Of a stretch of 20,000 nucleotides of DNA, positions 1 through 19,885 are shown in pieces (positions within the stretch are counted from its first letter, which is position 1; every line of letters starts with the position of its first letter). The DNA lies in NCBI GenBank assembly GCA_001871415.1, contig MNWW01000058.1, positions 110,483 to 130,482 of the forward strand. The letters run 5' to 3'. The stretch comes from Candidatus Woesearchaeota archaeon CG1_02_57_44. Its GTDB lineage: Archaea; Nanobdellota; Nanobdellia; Woesearchaeales; CG1-02-57-44. Both the position numbers and the translations under genes were made by a program. The notes under the pieces are model-generated. The model was not told where the DNA came from, did not search any database, and saw only the letters and a list, made by a program, of their open reading frames with translations.

Positions 1-374
1 TCGAGCAGCGCGTAGAGCAGCTCGCGGATCCCTTTTATCCCCTTAAAGGCGCTGACCTCGGATCGCTCCTTGGCCATCTCCTGCTTGAGCCGCAGCTCTG
101 GCAGCAGCTGCTCGAACTGCTCTTTCTTCTCATCGATGTACTGGGAGATGCGTCCGGGGTCGGTCGCCTGATACTGGTTGCGCCGTCCCTCCTTGATGAA
201 TGACACGAATCCCTTGGCGATGAGCTTGTTGAGTGTCATGTGCACGACAGAGCTCTGCAGGCCGCTCTTCTCGATGATCGGGCCTGCGGTGGACTCGCCA
301 AGCTCCAGCAGCGCCAGATAGGTACGTATCTCTGCATTGCTGAATCCCAGGTCCTCGAGGATGCGCGTGTCCAT
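1..374 (-). CDS. TrmB-family transcriptional regulator, N-terminal part (runs off the window edge)
   Basis: Not in the ORF track. My translation from ATG 374 is MDTRILEDLGFSNAEIRTYLALLELGESTAGPIIEKSGLQSSVVHMTLNKLIAKGFVSFIKEGRRNQYQATDPGRISQYIDEKKEQFEQLLPEL...VSAFKGIKGIRELLYALL, open to position 1. It has the TrmB winged-HTH pattern (LGxxxxExxxYxxLL...LxxKGxV) and is collinear with the paralog at 6333-7079. Confidence 0.9.
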   Translation of the reverse strand, partial: MDTRILEDLGFSNAEIRTYLALLELGESTAGPIIEKSGLQSSVVHMTLNKLIAKGFVSFIKEGRRNQYQATDPGRISQYIDEKKEQFEQLLPELRLKQEMAKERSEVSAFKGIKGIRELLYALL

Positions 375-396
375 GCTCGCTCTGTGGGCAGGGCGC

Positions 397-470
397 TATT
401 TGAATGTTACTGTTTTCTCCACCAAAACTGGAGAGTGAATCTATATATCGCGGTGTGTTACTACTGTGGT
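397..470. promoter_or_regulatory. Divergent archaeal-type promoter region with candidate operator sites
   Basis: TATA-like CTATATAT at 441-448 (+). Weaker TTCAAATA on the - strand (404-397), 22 nt before the TrmB ATG. Inverted repeat TCTCCA-N7-TGGAGA at 416-434. Motif TGTTACTACTGTGGT at 456-470 nearly recurs at 6126-6139. Confidence 0.55.
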
Positions 471-507
471 ATTGTAATAAGCAAGGATCACAGAAGAGGT
501 GAACGAG

Positions 508-612
508 ATGACGAAATTTGACGGACATTCGAAAAAGACACTGGCTGATGGGCTTGAGGTGCCTATGGATACGCAAGCTATCGTGCGCTGGCGCGCCTAC
601 CAGGGGGTGTGA
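508..612 (+). CDS. Small protein, 34 aa (MTKFDGHSKKTLADGLEVPMDTQAIVRWRAYQGV), unknown function
   Basis: Strong GAGGTGA SD (496-502) 5 nt before ATG 508. First ORF after the TATA box. Stop codon lies 2 nt before the next ATG (615). Below the ORF-track length cutoff. Confidence 0.55.
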   Translation: MTKFDGHSKKTLADGLEVPMDTQAIVRWRAYQGV

Positions 613-614
613 GC

Positions 615-1232
615 ATGAGACACAAGAATCCTGCGTACATGGTGGCAGCAGGGCTGAGTATTCTGGCGGCTACTGCAGGGGCTCCTGCTGCAGATGGATG
701 GGTTGCGCTCACTCCTGCGGTGCAGGAGGGCGGCGTGACCTTGCGGGTCGAGGAGAGCATCAGTGTGGGGCCCCTGACTGAATACGGTTTCCTTGATGTC
801 GGTCCTGACAATGCAATCTATGGCGAATCGCGCTTCAGCTTGCCGTTGGAACGCGTGCTGCCGGGGGTCGATGACTCCCTGCTGTCACGGCTTTCCCTTG
901 TGGGTGAGATTGATGCGGGTTCTGGTATGCAGCCGAGATTCCGCGCAGGCATCGGCGGCAGCTATGCTCCCTGGCAGGGCAACACCTCCGGCTTTCGCGT
1001 CATGCCCTTCTCGAGCTATGGGGCTCCCCAAGCGACGCTGTACTCCTACCAGCACCTTGGCGATGTCGACCTTGGAGGTTTTATCGACCTGGACAGGAAT
1101 GGCTGCTATGGCGAGATAGAGGTGACAGTACGGATTGATCCGCACCTGAGGGTGCTCGCGCAGGCACGCGGCTGCAAAGGGAGTGCGGGCGCGGATGTGG
1201 TGCCGTTGCTTGGTCTGAGGTGGGAGCCATGA
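615..1232 (+). CDS. Secreted protein with a predicted beta-barrel fold (Tsx/DUF5020-like), 205 aa
   Basis: Signal-peptide-like N-terminus (MRHK...YMVAAGLSILAATAGAPAA). About 11-12 short amphipathic beta-like segments, an internal repeat (YGFLDV..YGE / GGFIDL..YGE) and a C-terminal PLLGLRW. ATG 615 is preferred over GTG 609 because GGGGGTG lies just upstream as SD. Confidence 0.6.
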   Translation: MRHKNPAYMVAAGLSILAATAGAPAADGWVALTPAVQEGGVTLRVEESISVGPLTEYGFLDVGPDNAIYGESRFSLPLERVLPGVDDSLLSRLSLVGEIDAGSGMQPRFRAGIGGSYAPWQGNTSGFRVMPFSSYGAPQATLYSYQHLGDVDLGGFIDLDRNGCYGEIEVTVRIDPHLRVLAQARGCKGSAGADVVPLLGLRWEP

Positions 1233-1280
1233 GCGAGTCTGCTATGCATTCATCCCCGCAGGGGATACGAGGTGATGCGC

Positions 1281-1649
1281 ATGGACACAGCACTTGAGGC
1301 GCGCCTCAACGCGCTGCTGCAGGCTGACGAGCGCGAAGCCATAGGGGCTCTCATCGCAGGACGGGACAGGGAGACACAGGTCGCGATGAACCGCCTTGCA
1401 TGCGGTTATTTTCTGGAGCAGGGGCAGTATGTCGATGCTGTCTTCTGCGCGAGCCATGCGGGTGATGGAGACAGGGTATTTGAGATACTCGACATCCCGG
1501 ATGCTCGTCAGCAGGCACAGGAATTCATCCCCTCGAATGTCTATATCCAGTGCTCGCATGGCACGCCGCTCGGCTTGCTGAATACCCCGTATCATGACCT
1601 ATACTGGATGCTGCATTTCCACGCCGGGGCGAGAAAACCGACGACTTGA
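1281..1649 (+). CDS. Hypothetical protein, 122 aa
   Basis: GAGGTGA SD at 1269-1275 before ATG 1281. Same orientation as the upstream genes, and it fills the gap to the convergent Fur gene. No recognisable motif. Confidence 0.65.
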   Translation: MDTALEARLNALLQADEREAIGALIAGRDRETQVAMNRLACGYFLEQGQYVDAVFCASHAGDGDRVFEILDIPDARQQAQEFIPSNVYIQCSHGTPLGLLNTPYHDLYWMLHFHAGARKPTT

Positions 1650-1659
1650 TGTTCCCTTT

Positions 1660-2154
1660 CTATTCTTCTTGATTTTTTTTCTTTGCGCTCGCTGCCGGGT
1701 TTCTTCGGGATCTGGCCCTCATATCTGAAACGCATTCTTCACAGGTCCCTCGCACCTCTATCTGGAAGCTGCTTATAGTCCCGGGTATCTTCTCCTGCAT
1801 GAAGTCGAGCGAGTCCACGTCGAAGTGGATGACTTCGCCTGTCTTCTCGCACACGAAGTGGCAATGGCTCATCTTGCTGGTCGTATAGACAGTCTTTCGG
1901 TTGCAGAGGTAGGAGCGCACCTCGCCCGTCCTCTTCTTGTCCCGCAGGAAGCGGTAGACCGTGGCGATGCCCATTGATCTTGCCTGCCGTGATGCATCCT
2001 GTCTCTTACATGCGCTGGTGTCTCCGCTGGTGTCTCCTTTGACTGGGGCTGCCTCGGCAGCTATCCTCAGCTGCTCTGCTGAAAAGAATGGGGGCATCTT
2101 GCGGAGCGCGGAACCCAATGCCTTGTACTGATGTGTGGTTCTGCTACGGGGCAT
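1660..2154 (-). CDS. Fur-family metalloregulator (probably Zur-like)
   Basis: Fur motifs: RTT-Q, FFSAEQL, GIATVYRFL, HCHFVCEKTG-V, C-terminal G-CEEC. AGGTGA SD upstream. Divergent from a ZIP transporter. Confidence 0.88.
   Translation of the reverse strand: MPRSRTTHQYKALGSALRKMPPFFSAEQLRIAAEAAPVKGDTSGDTSACKRQDASRQARSMGIATVYRFLRDKKRTGEVRSYLCNRKTVYTTSKMSHCHFVCEKTGEVIHFDVDSLDFMQEKIPGTISSFQIEVRGTCEECVSDMRARSRRNPAASAKKKNQEE
2014..2037. repeat. Perfect 12-bp tandem duplication within the Fur gene (encodes GDTS-GDTS)
   Basis: GCTGGTGTCTCC occurs twice, at 2014-2025 and 2026-2037. Confidence 0.9.
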
Positions 2155-2299: not shown

Positions 2300-3052
2300 A
2301 TGCTCCTGGCAATCATCCTCGCCACCGTGCTCATAAGCTGCATATCGCTCGTTGGTGTGTTCTTCGGCGACGCGCACATCCGCAAGTTCATGCACTATTT
2401 CATCAGCTTCGCGGCCGCCGTGCTCATCGCTATCACTTTCTTTGACCTGCTTCCTGAGGCGCTGGAAGAATTGGAGCTCATGGGGGTGCATCTAGAACAC
2501 GCGCTGGTGTGGGTAGTCGTTGGCATCGTGCTCTTCTTTTTGGTCGAGCGATTCATCCACTGGCATCACTGCGATAAGGATGATTGCCATGAGAGGCCGG
2601 CGGGTATGCTCGTTCTGACCGGTGATTTTGTCCACAACTTCATTGATGGCCTGCTCATCGCTGGCGCTTTTCTGCTCAACGTGCCTACGGGCATCGTGAC
2701 GTCTATCAGCGTCGCTGTGCATGAGATTCCGCAGGAGATAGGTGATTACGCGGTGCTCATCCACAGTGGCTACTCCCGTGGCAGGGCGCTGTGGCTGAAT
2801 TTCCTCTCGGCGCTGTCTGCGGTTATAGGGGGCGTCCTGGGCTATTATTTATTTGATTCTTTCACGGGCATCGCGCCGTATGCCGTCCTGCTCGTCGCCG
2901 GAGGGTTCCTCTACATCGCGCTCTCTGATATCGTCCCGGCGCTGCATCGGCATCATTCAGAACGCAAGGTGCAGTTGCTGGAGACGCTGCTGTTTGTCGG
3001 TACCATGGTGGCGGTATACTTCCTGCTCGGCGCGCTGGGGCATGGGCACTGA
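2300..3052 (+). CDS. ZIP-family divalent metal (zinc) transporter
   Basis: Multiple hydrophobic helices, LLPEA motif, His-rich loop HWHHCDKDDCHE, HNFIDG and HEIPQEIGD signature motifs, FLYIALSDIVP. Leaderless start. Confidence 0.95.
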   Translation: MLLAIILATVLISCISLVGVFFGDAHIRKFMHYFISFAAAVLIAITFFDLLPEALEELELMGVHLEHALVWVVVGIVLFFLVERFIHWHHCDKDDCHERPAGMLVLTGDFVHNFIDGLLIAGAFLLNVPTGIVTSISVAVHEIPQEIGDYAVLIHSGYSRGRALWLNFLSALSAVIGGVLGYYLFDSFTGIAPYAVLLVAGGFLYIALSDIVPALHRHHSERKVQLLETLLFVGTMVAVYFLLGALGHGH

Positions 3053-3933: not shown

Positions 3934-5349
3934 TCACCTCGCCTCCCAGTGCGCCACCCTCGTCGTGCCGTGCAGACCATCCTGCAAGGAGAGGAGGGCG
4001 TCTCTGACGACATCAGGGCTGATATCGCAATACTGCCGCACGAAGAGGTCGCTGAGCAGGATATAATCGATATTGTCTTCGCTGAGCAGGTCAGTGCCTG
4101 TCATCTGTCCGTATCGCTCCACGATTGAGGGGTTCTGCATCGCCTGCTTGAAATATGCTGAGCCGGGAAGGACCTTGAGCATGTTGATGCTCATGTCATC
4201 GACGTTTGGCATGGTGGCCAGCTGCTCGATGAGCGCTACATTCCTCTGCAATGATCCTGCGCTCTCTCCCGGGATGCCCAGCACGAAGGATGGCATGACC
4301 GTGATGCCCTGCTCTCCCAGCAGTGCCACTTCCTCGACCAGCTTGTCGATGGTATAGGAACTTGCGTATCTTCCTTGCATATGGTCATTAGTCTGCCTGC
4401 TCTCAGCGAAGTAGCGCACGTTCTCCACGCCCATGAAGATGTTGACGAACCCTGCTCCTTTGAGCCTGCGCGCCAGGGTCTCGCCGTTCACCATGCCTGG
4501 GTGCAGGTAGCCTCGCAGTCTTGTGCCGCTCAGGTGATCCGGCCTCGTGGCGATGATGCCCTCGAGCGCCTGCACCGGGAAGATGTCAGCTGTCTCGAAG
4601 ACATAGTCGATGCCATAGTCTCGGTCCAACGCATCTATCTGCTCCCAGAATCTTTCTGGGCTCACATGGCGCCTTCCATTCACCGGGATACTGCAGTAGT
4701 CGCAGCGGTTCGTCCTGAAACATCCGCGAGCGGTGCTGACGGGAAAGGCACTGTGCGCCGCTGCGTCTTCACCGAGCCGCTGCCAGGTATAACCCCCCAC
4801 TAGCTGCTTTGGTGTCATGGGCGGGATTTCTTGCAGGTCCAGAGAATAATCCGGGGTGTTCTGGGTGATGGTTCCATCGCCCGCGCGATACGCGAGGCCA
4901 GGTATCTGCCCAAGGGGCGCGTGCTGCAGAAGCATCTGCAGGGCCTTCTCGCCATCGCCTTCAACGACATAGTCTGCTCCAGGTTGATTGCGCAGAATCC
5001 TTTCGGACATCCCGCTTGTGTTGGGGCCTCCTATGATAATCCCGGCATGCGGGTTGGTCTTCCTGACCTTCTCCACCAAACGCATTCCATCTCCGTGGCT
5101 GCTGAACCAGACGCTGATCCCTACATACGCTGCCTCTCTGGCCGCCTCCAGCATGGCGTCTTCACCATACCTTGGGCCATTGGCGTCGTAGACAGGGATG
5201 CTCTGGCCGGTCCTGCCCTCGATGTAGCTCGCGAGCGTGAGCAATCCTGTGGGCGGGATGTATCGCTGGTTGAGTGCCTGGCCGAGGGTGTGGCGAGGGT
5301 TGATGAGCAGGGCACGGGATGGCGCGCCTGCTTCGGGTCTGGCCTGCAT
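3934..5349 (-). CDS. Cobalamin-binding (class B-like) radical SAM protein
   Basis: N-terminal B12-binding-domain pattern (LLINP, PPTGLLTLASY, VGIS, IIIGGP, DYVVEGDGE). RGCFRTNRCDYC cysteine cluster. Radical SAM core elements (IFMGVEN, FVLGIPGES, PGS). Confidence 0.9.
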   Translation of the reverse strand: MQARPEAGAPSRALLINPRHTLGQALNQRYIPPTGLLTLASYIEGRTGQSIPVYDANGPRYGEDAMLEAAREAAYVGISVWFSSHGDGMRLVEKVRKTNPHAGIIIGGPNTSGMSERILRNQPGADYVVEGDGEKALQMLLQHAPLGQIPGLAYRAGDGTITQNTPDYSLDLQEIPPMTPKQLVGGYTWQRLGEDAAAHSAFPVSTARGCFRTNRCDYCSIPVNGRRHVSPERFWEQIDALDRDYGIDYVFETADIFPVQALEGIIATRPDHLSGTRLRGYLHPGMVNGETLARRLKGAGFVNIFMGVENVRYFAESRQTNDHMQGRYASSYTIDKLVEEVALLGEQGITVMPSFVLGIPGESAGSLQRNVALIEQLATMPNVDDMSINMLKVLPGSAYFKQAMQNPSIVERYGQMTGTDLLSEDNIDYILLSDLFVRQYCDISPDVVRDALLSLQDGLHGTTRVAHWEAR

Positions 5350-5350
5350 C

Positions 5351-6091
5351 CTACTCGCCCTCGACCTTGCTTGTGCGCTGGCCCCTCTTTATCTCATAGA
5401 TGCTGAAGTCGCCTCGCTGCAGGCCTTCGGCAGAATCGATGCGCTCCTGCTTGCTGACATGATAGCCGAACCGTTCTGCATGAGCCGCTGGATCGTTCTT
5501 CGGCCCTGCGAAATGAAAATAGGGCATGACGATGACACCACGGGGCTCCAGATGGTCCTTCGCATCGACCAAGAACCTGTTGATGAGGTCGGTGCCGCCC
5601 AGCATGGAGGCGCCAAGACCCTTGGGGTCTTGACCCATTGCCTCGGGACGTTCAGGGAAGAACGGGTGATTGAATACGATGCATTCATAGCGTGTGTTTG
5701 GCAATGTGTCGAACAGGTCGCTCTCGTAGCAGGCCACCCTGTCCTGCAGGCCGGACAATCGGGCGTTGTATCCTGCATCGGCCACTGCCAGCGGGTTGAT
5801 GTCGGCGAGGTCGACATCAGCCGCCCCGAGCATCGCCATGAGCAGGCCTTGGGTGCCCGGGCCGCAGCCCATATCAAGGCATCGTCTGCCCGCGAAGAGG
5901 TTCTGGTTCGCATGCAGGTATCGGGCCAGCAGGATGCCTGAGCTCATGATGTCAGAGCCGAACACGCCATTGCTGATGCGCAGGGGCAGCTGCAGATGCT
6001 CGCTCACAGGAACGTTGTAGGTTCCGGTCGGCCTATCGTGGCGTGCTATCTGCCCTAGGACCTGCGCTGCCTGCTCCTGTGTCAAGGTCAT
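5351..6091 (-). CDS. Class I SAM-dependent methyltransferase (HemK/PrmC-like fold)
   Basis: LDMGCGPG motif I, ADINPLAV..A..N, SDLF, and IVFNHPF at the position of NPPY/F. GGAGGTGA SD. Stop codon lies 1 nt from the radical SAM ATG. Confidence 0.88.
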   Translation of the reverse strand: MTLTQEQAAQVLGQIARHDRPTGTYNVPVSEHLQLPLRISNGVFGSDIMSSGILLARYLHANQNLFAGRRCLDMGCGPGTQGLLMAMLGAADVDLADINPLAVADAGYNARLSGLQDRVACYESDLFDTLPNTRYECIVFNHPFFPERPEAMGQDPKGLGASMLGGTDLINRFLVDAKDHLEPRGVIVMPYFHFAGPKNDPAAHAERFGYHVSKQERIDSAEGLQRGDFSIYEIKRGQRTSKVEGE

Positions 6092-6170: not shown

Positions 6171-6332
6171 TTACCCTTGGGGGTCGTAGTTTATGTCTAT
6201 CCTGGCCACTATTGCTTCTTGGCCGTCCATTTGGCTCATTCTGTGTGGGGGGCGGGGAAAAATAGTGAAAATACTGTCCCCTTTGGGGGTCTGATAGGAA
6301 GTTTTTTATGCAGCAATGCCTTGGATATCCTT

Positions 6333-7079
6333 GTGGAACCACGAATCCTTCAGGACATCGGCCTGACCGATGGAGAGGCGCGCGTGTATCTCGCGCTGCT
6401 CGCTTTGGGGGAATCAAAGACAGGACCGCTCGCCAAAGAGGCACGAGTCTCATCATCCAAGGTGTACAAGATCCTGGACCGCCTCATGGTCAAGGGACTC
6501 ACTGGCTTTGTCACCAAAGGAAAGACAAAATATTTCTCAGCAGTGGACCCCCAGCGGCTGCGCGAGTTCGTGGCGCGTCAGGAACAAGAGCTTGAGCGCA
6601 GGCGGACTGTGGTGGAGCGGCTCATCCCTGAGCTGGAGACGGCGCAGAATCTTGCCCGCAAACCAGATGCGGTGGTGTACGATGGATTCAAGGCAACCAC
6701 GAACTTCTTTCGCAGCCTGCTCGAGGAGCTCGGCAATGGTGATGAGTATCGCGTGCTCGGCGGCAACTATGGCACGACACAGGGGCTTCGGCCATTCTTT
6801 CAGAACTATCATCGGCAACGTGCGGCAAAGGGCATCAAGGTGCGGATGCTCGCCAACCATGGGGTGCTCGGCAACATCGAATCCACCACCCTGCAGCAGG
6901 CTGAGGTGCGCTATCTGCCGGAACGCTTCGTGTCGAGCATGCAGGTCACCTTCTATGGCAGCAAGGCGTTCATCACCTTCTGGACCAGATCTCCGACGGG
7001 ATTTCTCATCAATGACCCTGAGGCAGTCAGCAGCTTCGGCTCGTACTTTGATGCGTTGTGGCTGATGGGCGAGAAGTGA
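6333..7079 (+). CDS. TrmB-family transcriptional regulator, 248 aa
   Basis: IGLTDGEARVYLALL..G...LAKEARV....VYKILDRL..KG winged HTH, then a coiled coil and a C-terminal effector-domain-like region. Start reassigned to GTG 6333 by alignment to the paralog (MDTRILEDLG vs VEPRILQDIG) and TTTTTTAT (6302-6309) 23 nt upstream. Confidence 0.9.
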   Translation: MEPRILQDIGLTDGEARVYLALLALGESKTGPLAKEARVSSSKVYKILDRLMVKGLTGFVTKGKTKYFSAVDPQRLREFVARQEQELERRRTVVERLIPELETAQNLARKPDAVVYDGFKATTNFFRSLLEELGNGDEYRVLGGNYGTTQGLRPFFQNYHRQRAAKGIKVRMLANHGVLGNIESTTLQQAEVRYLPERFVSSMQVTFYGSKAFITFWTRSPTGFLINDPEAVSSFGSYFDALWLMGEK

Positions 7080-17182: not shown

Positions 17183-19885
17183 CTATCTGCGGCCAAACCA
17201 GTGTCCGATGGCTTCACTGATGTCCTTGTTGGTTGTCTGCTCGCAGACCGCCTCGATGGCACGCTGCGGGCTCCAGGCTGGATTCTGGATGTAGGTCAGC
17301 GGAGCGACAAGGTGGGTGAGCTGCTGGGCAGCGTAGAGTATCTGTCCGCTTACCCTGATCCTGTCCTGGTATGCGTCCTGCACCACGGCGTGGGAAGGAT
17401 CGCCGGGCCACTGCTCCGCGATGCGCTGCAATGATAATTTTCGCAGGATGTCATGCTCGCTTCTGGCCCAAGCGGAAGGCGGGTCGCTCCTATTGAACAA
17501 CCCAGGTTCGACCTGGTTCTTGGAGCAGTCATAGAGGAACGCGGCGCGTGTCAGGGTCTCCACTTGCTCCTTTCCGATGATGCGTTTCTCTGCCAGACGC
17601 GTGCAGATGAGATTCGTCGCCAGGGCGCGCATGAGCGAGCCATACAGATTGCCGGTCACAGCGTCGAAGCGCGCGATATTGATGCCTGGAATATCCACCA
17701 TGGTCTCGAGGGGTCCCCATATCTCACCTTCCCTTCTCGGCAATGCTCGCGCCTCGCGGTAGGGTGCATCTTCCAGATGCAACGCTGACTCGCGGATGAA
17801 GATGGCGGATTGCAGGTTCGTCTGCCAGTATTCGATCAATCGTGCCTGCAGCTTCTGTTGGCCTGCCGCGCGCGAGCTCGGGTCGACTTTGTAGGGGTTG
17901 TCGAGCACCAGATAGATGCCGGTCAGGTCATGGGCCGTGACCGGTTCTTCCAGGCCTTTTATCGATGTCGGCGCCCATTCCTGGAGTGTGAAGGAATATC
18001 TGGCAACAGCAGCAGTGGCTGGGCCGAGCATGACATGTCCTGGGACCTTGGTGACGGCGCCCTCCATACGGCTGGCGATATTCACATCATCGCCCATGAC
18101 CGTGTACGCTGGTTTCTGCGGCGCACCTGATGAGCCAGATATCACGTCGCCCGAATTGATGCCGATGCGGATGCCCATTTCCCGTTTCGGTGTACCGTCC
18201 GGGTGATGGTACATCTCCCGTATGCACCATGCTGCCAGGCACATCTGTTCAACATGCGCGTTGCTCGCCCGTTCCTGGTCAGGGGTGTCGCCGATAGGCA
18301 GTCCTCCTATCGCCATGATGGCGTCACCTTCATACTTGTCGACCCAGATGCCTAGTCCCATGAGCGCCCCGACCATTGGCGTATTGATGTCTATCATGGT
18401 CGTGTTGATTACCTGCGGCGCCTGTTCCGGTGTGCCTGCATCCAGCATGCGTTGCCTCACGCTTCTGGACCATGCCGTGAACCCTGCCGCGTCAGTGAAC
18501 AACATGGTCGCCGGGTGGTGTGTGGACGTGAGCGTACCGTCCACCAGCGCCCTGCCTATGCCTCTTGGCAGCATCTGCGTGAATGCGGCAGCGTACTTGG
18601 CGGTTTGTTCAACCGCGCTTCGCAGCTGTTCCTGCGCAAGGACCACGCGCTGGGTCCTGGCTTGTTGCGCGGCAAGCGCTGCCTGCAGATCATCTATCTG
18701 ACGGGAATAACCAAAGGGGCTGGCGGCCCGGGCCAACAGGTTGGGCAGGAGTCCCTGCTGGTCCCAGATGGTGTAATGTACACACGTTGGCGTCATGCCC
18801 GTCACTTCAGGCATCTGGGATTTTCCACGCGGTCTGTTATCCTGGGTTATGGTCGCCTGATGCTGTACATTGTAGAACTGGTCCTTGCGCAACACCGACC
18901 TGCCATTGACATCTACGGCATGGGTGCAGAGGAATGCGATATTGGGGTCTTCTGGCCACATGAATTCCCCGACACGGGTCATGGGAATGTAGTCTGAACG
19001 CAAGCGCTGATAATCCATGCCCTCGATGGGAGTCAGCTGATCGATTAGCTCATCACGGCTGCGGCTCTTCTGGAAGGGCAGCAATGTCGGAGGACTGAGC
19101 ATGGTCACAAATGAGCCAACAATCGCGCCATTGAAATACAGGTCAGGGCCATTGCGATAGATGTCCGCATCAAGGTTGAACAAGTCCGCGGATTCGCGCA
19201 AGATCTGCATGACATCGCAGCCACAGTGCGTCTCGACCAGGTGCGTGTTTTCCTCCCGTTTGCCGATGGAGGGCATATAGGCGTATACGCCTGTGGTGAA
19301 ATGGCAGTCCCACAGGCGTGGCGGCACCAGGTACGCACTGAAGACAAGGCCCTGCTGAGGGTCTCGCAGACCGTCATCGGTAAACGGGCGAAGCAGGTTC
19401 TGGAACTGGTGCGTATGGCTCAGCATGGCGCTGAGTACACTTGTGGTTCCTCCTAGTCTGCTGAGCGTCGCCAGGCCACTGAGGGTCGCTCCTCCCTGGT
19501 TAAGGTCATAGTAGTGGTATCCCGCGTCATAGAGCGCCAAGGGGTCCTGGAAATGGTCTACGATGGCGGTGACTACCTGACTGACCTCCTGGTAGGTTGC
19601 GCCATCATCCGGTTCCAGCGGTAATGCCGTCTTTTGCAGCCACGGCGCGGCCTCAAGGAGCCATTCCAGTACTTCCCGGTTTTTTGGGTCCTTGATGGAT
19701 GGTGCGCTCATGGCCGCAGGCGGCATGCGCTTGCCATCGCGTGCTTCCAAGCTGCGCACCAGCGCGTACTGTACCACTGTCATGACATTCCTGCCAAAGA
19801 CCATGGGGCTATAGCTGGAGAGCCACGAATGCGTCAGCATGTCTTCAAGCCCTAAAGGGTCTGCCATGGGCAACAGGTGTGGCAT
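17183..19885 (-). CDS. Multidomain class III adenylate/guanylate cyclase with an N-terminal sensor-like region and a degenerate HD-GYP-like C-terminus
   Basis: Cyclase motifs TMLFTDAAGFTAWS, VDKYEGDAIMA, IRIGINSG and YTVMGDDVNIASRMEG, preceded by a Q/A-rich coiled coil. The start may instead be ATG 19867, which has TATA-like ATTATTAA 23 nt upstream. Confidence 0.88.
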   Translation of the reverse strand: MPHLLPMADPLGLEDMLTHSWLSSYSPMVFGRNVMTVVQYALVRSLEARDGKRMPPAAMSAPSIKDPKNREVLEWLLEAAPWLQKTALPLEPDDGATYQEVSQVVTAIVDHFQDPLALYDAGYHYYDLNQGGATLSGLATLSRLGGTTSVLSAMLSHTHQFQNLLRPFTDDGLRDPQQGLVFSAYLVPPRLWDCHFTTGVYAYMPSIGKREENTHLVETHCGCDVMQILRESADLFNLDADIYRNGPDLYFNGAIVGSFVTMLSPPTLLPFQKSRSRDELIDQLTPIEGMDYQRLRSDYIPMTRVGEFMWPEDPNIAFLCTHAVDVNGRSVLRKDQFYNVQHQATITQDNRPRGKSQMPEVTGMTPTCVHYTIWDQQGLLPNLLARAASPFGYSRQIDDLQAALAAQQARTQRVVLAQEQLRSAVEQTAKYAAAFTQMLPRGIGRALVDGTLTSTHHPATMLFTDAAGFTAWSRSVRQRMLDAGTPEQAPQVINTTMIDINTPMVGALMGLGIWVDKYEGDAIMAIGGLPIGDTPDQERASNAHVEQMCLAAWCIREMYHHPDGTPKREMGIRIGINSGDVISGSSGAPQKPAYTVMGDDVNIASRMEGAVTKVPGHVMLGPATAAVARYSFTLQEWAPTSIKGLEEPVTAHDLTGIYLVLDNPYKVDPSSRAAGQQKLQARLIEYWQTNLQSAIFIRESALHLEDAPYREARALPRREGEIWGPLETMVDIPGINIARFDAVTGNLYGSLMRALATNLICTRLAEKRIIGKEQVETLTRAAFLYDCSKNQVEPGLFNRSDPPSAWARSEHDILRKLSLQRIAEQWPGDPSHAVVQDAYQDRIRVSGQILYAAQQLTHLVAPLTYIQNPAWSPQRAIEAVCEQTTNKDISEAIGHWFGRR

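Follow-up and report, generated by a model that had tools for sequence, protein, structure and literature searches.

Contig C44 (130,482 bp) of Candidatus Woesearchaeota archaeon CG1_02_57_44 ends in a 20-kb stretch, hereafter the window, in which the gene at positions 615..1232 (+ strand) encodes a protein predicted to fold as a 12-stranded β-barrel of the outer-membrane class. Transmembrane β-barrels of this class are regarded as hallmarks of the outer membranes of bacteria and of the organelles derived from them, and they are thought to need Omp85/BamA for their insertion. The gene is native to a groundwater DPANN archaeon of the Woesearchaeota/Nanoarchaeota type. By sequence, its product represents a new family; the fold class is known, and its occurrence in this domain of life is unexpected. 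The family is conserved, has its own archaeal regulator and occurs in archaea in which Omp85 was not found. We consider it fairly probable that the protein is a Sec-exported barrel acting as a small-solute channel in a lipid layer beyond the cytoplasmic membrane, into which it would be inserted without Omp85/BamA. These findings raise the questions of whether some DPANN archaea possess a second lipid layer, whether pores are planted in partner cells and whether there is a BamA-free insertion route.

Predicted fold of the protein and its two faces

The reading frame starts with an ATG at 615 and ends at 1232, stop codon included, which gives a protein of 205 residues; this form is also recorded in the protein collection (P0013). 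The list of open reading frames (ORFs) contains, on the same strand, a form of 207 residues with an alternative GTG start (609..1232). A Shine-Dalgarno-like GGGGGTG, to which this role is ascribed from its sequence, is present 5 nt 5' of the ATG at 615 (603..609, +). The preliminary description of this DNA had claimed a signal peptide, and the N-terminus (615..695, +; the cleavage site is approximate) is indeed signal-peptide-like: as read by eye, it comprises basic residues (R4, H5 and K6), a hydrophobic core (M11-A25) and an A-x-A motif (A-P-A). In the AlphaFold2 model, residues 8-22 (numbering of the 207-residue form) make up a helix that lies outside the barrel. A comparable N-terminus is found in all aligned relatives, with a lipobox cysteine instead in some of them. 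The mature barrel (696..1229, +) contains strands 1-12, arranged in two homologous six-strand halves (residues ~28-122 and 123-207 of the 207-residue form).

With a nine-sequence alignment (A1), AlphaFold2 produced a closed barrel of 12 strands, with a predicted local distance difference test (pLDDT) score of 83.8 and a predicted template-modelling (TM) score (pTM) of 0.74. All 11 strands that had been listed earlier from the sequence correspond to strands 2-12 of the model, which adds a first strand at 30-39. Comparison of the model with the Protein Data Bank (PDB) by Foldseek, a check that had been proposed together with AlphaFold, gave 36 matches at E ≤ 1e-3, and all of those displayed were membrane β-barrels, natural or designed. 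The best match was Tsx (1tlw; E 1.1e-5; TM-score 0.62/0.53), and KdgM was also near the top. Structural alignment with VIA-align yielded Z 17.6 for KdgM (4fqe; root-mean-square deviation (rmsd) 3.1; 163/170 residues aligned), 17.4 for NanC (2wjr; rmsd 3.1; 167 residues aligned), 17.0 for Tsx (1tlw_A; rmsd 2.6; 177 residues aligned) and 15.5 for PcoB (7pge; rmsd 3.5; 172 residues aligned). Since KdgM, NanC and Tsx are tied within 1 Z unit, the nearest shape is that of a small 12-stranded specific porin and not that of Tsx in particular.

The gene had first been described as Tsx/DUF5020-like. The class of 12-stranded barrel implied by this label was borne out by the model, but membership of Tsx or DUF5020 by sequence was not. 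No Pfam family matched the barrel protein at E ≤ 0.1, and the models for Tsx (PF03502), DUF5020 (PF16412), KdgM (PF06178) and DUF481 matched none of 30 family members at E ≤ 10; in a separate comparison, the DUF5020 model matched 0/9 members at E ≤ 1. A cyanophage OMP-like barrel model gave weak matches in 3/30 members (best E 0.003). Sequence searches of the PDB found nothing significant with the profile made from A1 (best E 0.087, to unrelated proteins) and no match at E ≤ 10 with a second family profile, A2.

The closest known systems are the KdgM/NanC porins (PF06178; PDB 4fqe, 4pr7, 2wjr, 2wjq and 8xua), which are the best structural matches (Z 17.6/17.4, rmsd 3.1 over 163-168 residues, so that nearly the whole barrel protein is covered). 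Like the archaeal barrel, they have 12 antiparallel strands, about 200 residues, short loops and a charged lumen face. KdgM-type porins occur in carbohydrate-utilisation neighbourhoods, as do the bacterial relatives of the archaeal family. They differ from it in that there is no detectable sequence relation (7-10% identity in the structural alignments) and in that the archaeal family is encoded in genomes where Omp85 was not found. Tsx (PF03502; 1tlw), the top Foldseek match, also has 12 strands, but with about 250 residues in its chain it is larger, has longer loops and shows no Pfam match to the archaeal family. DUF5020 (PF16412), a group of small barrels of Bacteroidota, is, among the named clusters of the ESM Atlas, the nearest by predicted structure (TM-score 0.81/0.71 over 184 residues), and it accounts for 11% of the members of one neighbouring cluster in feature space; both results are leads only, and no member of the archaeal family matches PF16412.

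The distribution of residues over the strands was analysed with the strand boundaries of the model and a 25-sequence subset of the family alignment. On each of the 12 strands, residues of a hydrophobic face alternate with residues of a polar one. The hydrophobic face has a mean Kyte-Doolittle value of +1.40, contains 5.8% charged residues and is the more variable (column entropy 2.38), whereas the polar face has a mean value of -1.22, contains 30.6% charged residues and is the more conserved (column entropy 2.01). The polar face carries the conserved residues E48, E73, R75, E100, R112, E169, Q185 and R187. The combination of a variable hydrophobic face with a conserved, charged one is the pattern predicted for a barrel whose outside faces lipid and whose lumen is polar. 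The reading frame is intact, and the family has ten nearly invariant positions. The aromatic residue previously pointed out near the C-terminus is the W at position -3 of the barrel protein (...LRWEP); 7/8 full-length protein relatives and 7/12 archaeal genome copies end in F.

We considered the possibility that the protein works outside the cell as a barrel that is soluble or anchored to lipid and has a hydrophobic interior, binding or carrying a hydrophobic ligand or lipid and forming no transmembrane pore. This would agree with the finding of no barrel insertase, with the lipobox cysteine that replaces a plain signal peptide in several relatives and with the interstrand connections, which are very short on both sides of the barrel; moreover, which face points inward was derived indirectly and not from coordinates. 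The genome also encodes a bacterial-type prolipoprotein diacylglyceryl transferase (Lgt; PF01790, E 2.3e-59; C40:41838-42542 (-), locus L042), the presence of which bears on the lipobox-carrying relatives. Yet charged residues that are conserved, together with a hydrophobic face that is variable, are the mark of a barrel with a polar lumen and an outer surface turned towards lipid. In addition, all the Foldseek matches displayed at E ≤ 1e-3 are membrane barrels, and the bacterial members of the family are found in Opitutaceae, diderms that possess Omp85. We consider a soluble or lipid-anchored barrel improbable.

The two-fold internal repeat noticed earlier proved to be real at the profile level. 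Alignment of the N-terminal half (strands 1-6) with the C-terminal half (strands 7-12) by hhalign gave a probability of 95.3%, an E-value of 2.2e-8 and a score of 44.1 over 73 columns, as compared with 13.1 for the reversed C-terminal half and 12.3 for the best of 30 column shuffles. These two are the valid controls; circular shifts were uninformative because a local alignment survives the shift. From its sequence, the barrel looks like a duplication of a six-strand unit.

Archaeal provenance and distribution of the family

The assembly consists of 77 contigs with a total of 1.53 Mb; its completeness is 82% and its contamination 0.1%. Its small-subunit (SSU) rRNA scored 1458 bits with the archaeal model versus 1087 bits with the bacterial one. 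A scan of 100 ORFs in the rest of contig C44 revealed many archaeal hallmark genes; the genes found include those for TFE-alpha, Orc1/Cdc6, GatE, Hel308, diphthine synthase (dph5), an ATP-dependent DNA ligase, ribosomal protein S19e, archaeal Pth2, a proteasome assembly chaperone, NreA and an S-layer N-terminus. Furthermore, a 2,790-nt contig from a groundwater metagenome run that is not flagged as the source covered positions 1-1608 of the window with 0 differences; it extends 1.2 kb further upstream and joins the barrel gene to the neighbouring TrmB-family regulator gene. The hallmark genes and this independent contig exclude mis-binning and assembly chimerism as far as the data go. The assignment of the contig to a diderm bacterium, which had been named as the finding that would overturn the initial interpretation, was not borne out: the SSU scores and the archaeal genes on the 130-kb contig identify an archaeal genome.

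Relatives of the protein were found by running phmmer exhaustively against 1.84 billion representatives, which returned eight full-length sequences (208-222 residues, 28-33% identity), two of them named proteins of Nanoarchaeota/Nanoarchaeia metagenome-assembled genomes (MAGs). Three other phmmer matches (P0004, P0005 and P0010) were dropped, as they are long repeat proteins matched over short stretches. Further searches with the single sequence were empty: a word-seeded protein search recovered only the protein itself, a scan of genome contigs gave 218 pattern matches, none of which was a relative, and a search of 60 genomes of the same order gave 0 matches. The family is thus too divergent for this type of search.

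Profiles were used to survey 400 other genomes of the archaeal phylum at E ≤ 1e-3. A1 matched 13 of them, including a spurious match restricted to the signal peptide (L017, genome G191), which was dropped. A2 matched 21 (about 5%), of which 12 do so by construction, being rows of A2, whereas six new ones have E ≤ 3e-8; A2 is a broad profile that includes the divergent rows G210 and G354 (A1 E-values 9.7e-5 and 5.3e-4). Two orders, with many GTDB families, are represented among the archaeal carriers, the majority of which have a completeness of 91-100% and some of which consist of 1-4 contigs. Their barrel loci also hold genes for TBP, MCM, thermosome, S24e, RpoE and P0. No other genome searched belongs to the GTDB family of the carrier of the window, whose G+C content (~57%) compares with 30-44% in 15/18 of the other archaeal barrel loci examined; loci L044 and L046 have 54-55%.

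A tight cluster of proteins of 214-218 residues, with 62-100% mutual identity, came from a word-seeded profile search and maps to MAGs of Opitutaceae (Lacunisphaera and Opitutus). Another bacterial locus, L041 (Roseateles), was dropped because its match spans 26 residues. Profile A2 gave 0 matches at E ≤ 1e-3 in 300 other genomes sampled evenly from the phylum of the Opitutaceae. In the Opitutaceae, the barrel genes neighbour genes for sulfatases, GH92 and GH99 glycoside hydrolases, an MFS transporter and xylose-isomerase-like TIM-barrel proteins. The survey of homologue taxonomy that had been called for in the preliminary description found a family spread across the archaeal phylum, with one shallow bacterial clade in Opitutaceae. 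This previously unannotated family has, to judge from its sequences, deep diversity within the archaeal phylum.

A maximum-likelihood tree of 50 rows was computed, leaving out P0014 (a fragment), P0001 and P0013 (the barrel protein itself), the non-homologues P0004, P0005 and P0010, and four duplicates of bacterial loci; it is unrooted and its bootstrap has not fully settled. A bacterial-type clade of 27 rows is shallow (end branches ≤ 0.6), whereas the archaeal rows are deep and poorly resolved (end branches 0.5-5.8). One branch (support 98/95; 100% of 200 bootstrap trees) separates the labelled bacterial from the labelled archaeal rows. As the tree is unrooted, it does not give the direction of transfer. 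The contrast between a deep archaeal and a shallow, narrow bacterial distribution raises the possibility that an outer-membrane protein was transferred from archaea to bacteria.

These data also bear on the possibility that the gene is a recently acquired, functionless bacterial outer-membrane gene, or part of a mis-binned bacterial contig. The fold class is otherwise bacterial, the Opitutaceae clade exists and the genome contains other genes of bacterial type, such as that for Lgt. Yet the contig carries many archaeal hallmark genes and its junction was reproduced in an independent assembly. Furthermore, the archaeal members are deeply divergent (end branches 0.5-5.8), extend over many GTDB families and two orders, and have an archaeal regulator as partner, while the bacterial clade is shallow (≤ 0.6) and without representatives in 300 other genomes of its phylum. 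Finally, the reading frame is intact, ten positions are nearly invariant, and this conservation speaks against a functionless gene. We consider this explanation very improbable and largely refuted. The sequences fit better with an archaeal family and one transfer to Opitutaceae than with a recent bacterial gift to one archaeon.

Regulator pairing, insertion and proposed role

The gene divergent from the barrel gene had been taken for a TrmB regulator, and this was confirmed by its match to PF01978 (E 3.6e-15 for the part in the window, 1.5e-14 for the full-length protein). Its 5' part occupies positions 1..374 (-) and extends past the left end of the window; the complete gene (C44:110131-110856, -) encodes 241 residues. 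The pairing is conserved across relatives, as assessed in 19 archaeal loci (the window, 12 first-round and 6 second-round loci). A TrmB gene is immediately adjacent and divergent in 8/19, and divergent but one or two genes off in 2/19; an adjacent divergent gene for a double winged-helix protein (HTH_24/AsnC-type) is present in 3/19. In all, a TrmB or double winged-helix gene adjoins the barrel gene in 11/19 loci. Neither was present in the stretch examined in five loci, and one more locus lies at a contig end. The six second-round loci, which had not been used in noticing the pattern, comprised one with an adjacent TrmB gene, one with such a gene one gene away, one with a double winged-helix gene and three with none. 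Since the whole 1.53-Mb genome contains 12 matches to the TrmB model, of which seven score at least 54 bits, adjacency by chance would be rare.

The TrmB protein of the window aligns over its full length, with 30-38% identity, with the barrel-adjacent TrmB proteins of six other archaeal genomes. It scores 160 and 152 bits against the partners in two other genomes, as compared with 133 bits against the other TrmB protein encoded in the window. The similarity among the partner proteins thus exceeds that to a non-partner of the same genome by a moderate margin only, which makes their orthology suggestive, but not proven. The intergenic region between the two genes (375..614) comprises 240 bp and contains a single AT-rich, TATA-like element, as judged from its sequence, at about 441-449. 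A repeat scan also detected a 9-nt inverted repeat (399-407/525-533), which is at most a candidate operator.

Archaea were expected in the preliminary description to lack BamA, and this proved correct for the genomes searched. The Omp85 model (PF01103) found no match in the CG1_02_57_44 genome, which is 82% complete, and none in five further archaeal carriers with a completeness of 95-98%, so that 0/6 archaeal carriers were positive overall. The same model detected 2-3 copies in each of 3/3 Opitutaceae carriers and was positive in 7/14 control genomes. OMP_b-brl (PF13505) had no match in the CG1_02_57_44 genome.

In the mechanism that we favour, the protein would be exported by Sec as a monomer-sized, 12-stranded barrel with a KdgM/NanC/Tsx-like shape, derived from the duplication of a six-strand unit. 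A hydrophobic belt would face the lipid, the conserved lumen would be charged, and expression of the gene would most likely be controlled by the divergently transcribed TrmB-family regulator. As an open 12-stranded pore in the cytoplasmic membrane would be harmful, we infer that the barrel resides in a lipid layer beyond that membrane. This would be either an outer layer of the archaeon's own envelope or a partner cell's membrane, and the barrel would enter it without Omp85/BamA. There it would act as a channel for a small solute, a sugar or a similar nutrient being our best guess. TrmB is a family of sugar regulators, and this link, together with the carbohydrate-utilisation setting of the Opitutaceae members, points weakly to a sugar-type substrate.

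Several observations weigh against this mechanism. The model computed by AlphaFold2 from the single sequence was unusable (pLDDT 32.9), so that the fold rests on the nine-sequence alignment. The protein ends in ...RWEP, without a terminal aromatic residue. That the hydrophobic face points outward is deduced from the conservation pattern and from the exclusive matching of membrane barrels, and not from the coordinates; in addition, the enrichment of aromatic residues at the strand ends of this face is modest (19% versus 11%). No Omp85 was found in the archaeal carriers, and this archaeal group is not known to have an outer membrane. The patchy distribution, in ~5% of the sampled genomes, argues against a general structural component of the envelope and, because A2 is broad, some of its new matches may represent neighbouring barrel families. 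Finally, the substrate is a guess: the nearest other genes of the window encode a Fur regulator and a ZIP metal transporter, a neighbourhood that relatives do not share.

Alternatively, the exported barrel might be delivered to a partner, be this a diderm bacterium or another archaeon, and serve in the membrane of that cell as a nutrient conduit for the symbiont, rather than being part of the archaeon's own envelope. This possibility would agree with the small genome (1.53 Mb) of a DPANN-type lineage, with the finding of Omp85 in 0/6 archaeal carriers and with the patchy, accessory distribution (21/400 genomes); an adjoining dedicated regulator is, furthermore, what one would expect of a conditionally expressed factor. 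Yet a monomeric barrel with an exposed hydrophobic belt would not easily stay soluble on its way, the loci examined contain no chaperone or delivery system linked to the barrel gene, and no host is known. It also overlaps with the mechanism favoured above, from which it differs solely by the target membrane. We regard a function in a partner membrane as unlikely, though to be taken seriously.

A broader scenario would combine these elements: an ancient, archaeal-born and TrmB-regulated barrel family, built by duplication of a six-strand unit, integrated into a second lipid layer or a partner membrane by a BamA-independent route, and donated to Opitutaceae. We propose it tentatively, as a possibility with less than even chances. 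If it were true, genuine transmembrane β-barrels and a route for their insertion would exist beyond Bacteria and organelles. In a full-text literature search, no account of barrels of this kind from DPANN archaea was found. In a passage of PMC12228718, a possible distant relative, in Altiarchaeales, of the unrelated PopA barrel family is mentioned in passing, and a passage of PMC12153355 mentions porin-cytochrome operons only in bacteria of the Candidate Phyla Radiation.

Other genes of the window and of the genome

The genome contains a second barrel-like gene (C51:4286-4906, -; locus L043), which encodes a protein of 206 residues with a lipobox-like LAAGC in its signal peptide and the C-terminus ...GGRFTATF. 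It is divergent from a TrmB gene (L043:4964-5752, +; PF01978, E 2.5e-15) and is followed by an S-adenosylmethionine-dependent (SAM) methyltransferase gene (L043:3444-4280, -). Its ESM Atlas model (pTM 0.68) resembles clusters of the KdgM, CopB, DUF481 and DUF5020 types. Comparison of this protein with the family of the gene at 615..1232 revealed no detectable sequence relation (hhalign probability 2.4%). Methyltransferase genes recur beside barrel/TrmB pairs in loci L035, L045, L048 and L043. In genome G305, a gene for a SurA/PrsA-like foldase (SurA_N plus PPIC rotamase; L028:5254-6321, -) is located 3.4 kb from the barrel homologue.

The S-layer match on C44 (Methanococcus-type N-terminus; TIGR01564, E 2.9e-11) belongs to a protein of 793 residues (C44:65553-67934, -; L021:5556-7934). 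This match suggests that the archaeon probably has a conventional S-layer as well.

On the 3' side of the barrel gene, two overlapping ORFs on opposite strands (1242..1595, -, 117 residues; 1272..1649, +, 125 residues), neither of which has a Pfam match, separate it from the gene for the Fur-family regulator (1660..2154, -; PF01475, E 2.7e-11). The latter is divergent from the gene for the ZIP metal transporter (2300..3052, +; PF02535, E 9.7e-36), and the two resemble a metal uptake unit of the Zur/ZIP type. They were considered as functional partners of the barrel, but this idea was dropped since the neighbourhood is not conserved in other barrel loci.

Further downstream, the window is annotated with genes for a B12-binding radical-SAM enzyme (3934..5349, -) and an MTS-type methyltransferase (5351..6091, -), from which the second TrmB gene of the window (6177..7079, +) is divergent. 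An ilv/leu biosynthesis cluster is also present downstream of the barrel gene. No Rfam family matched the window. Close to its right end, a gene at 17183..19885 (-) encodes a nucleotide cyclase of 900 residues, in which a central adenylate/guanylate cyclase catalytic domain (PF00211, E 7.2e-19) is flanked on either side by long stretches without domain assignment.

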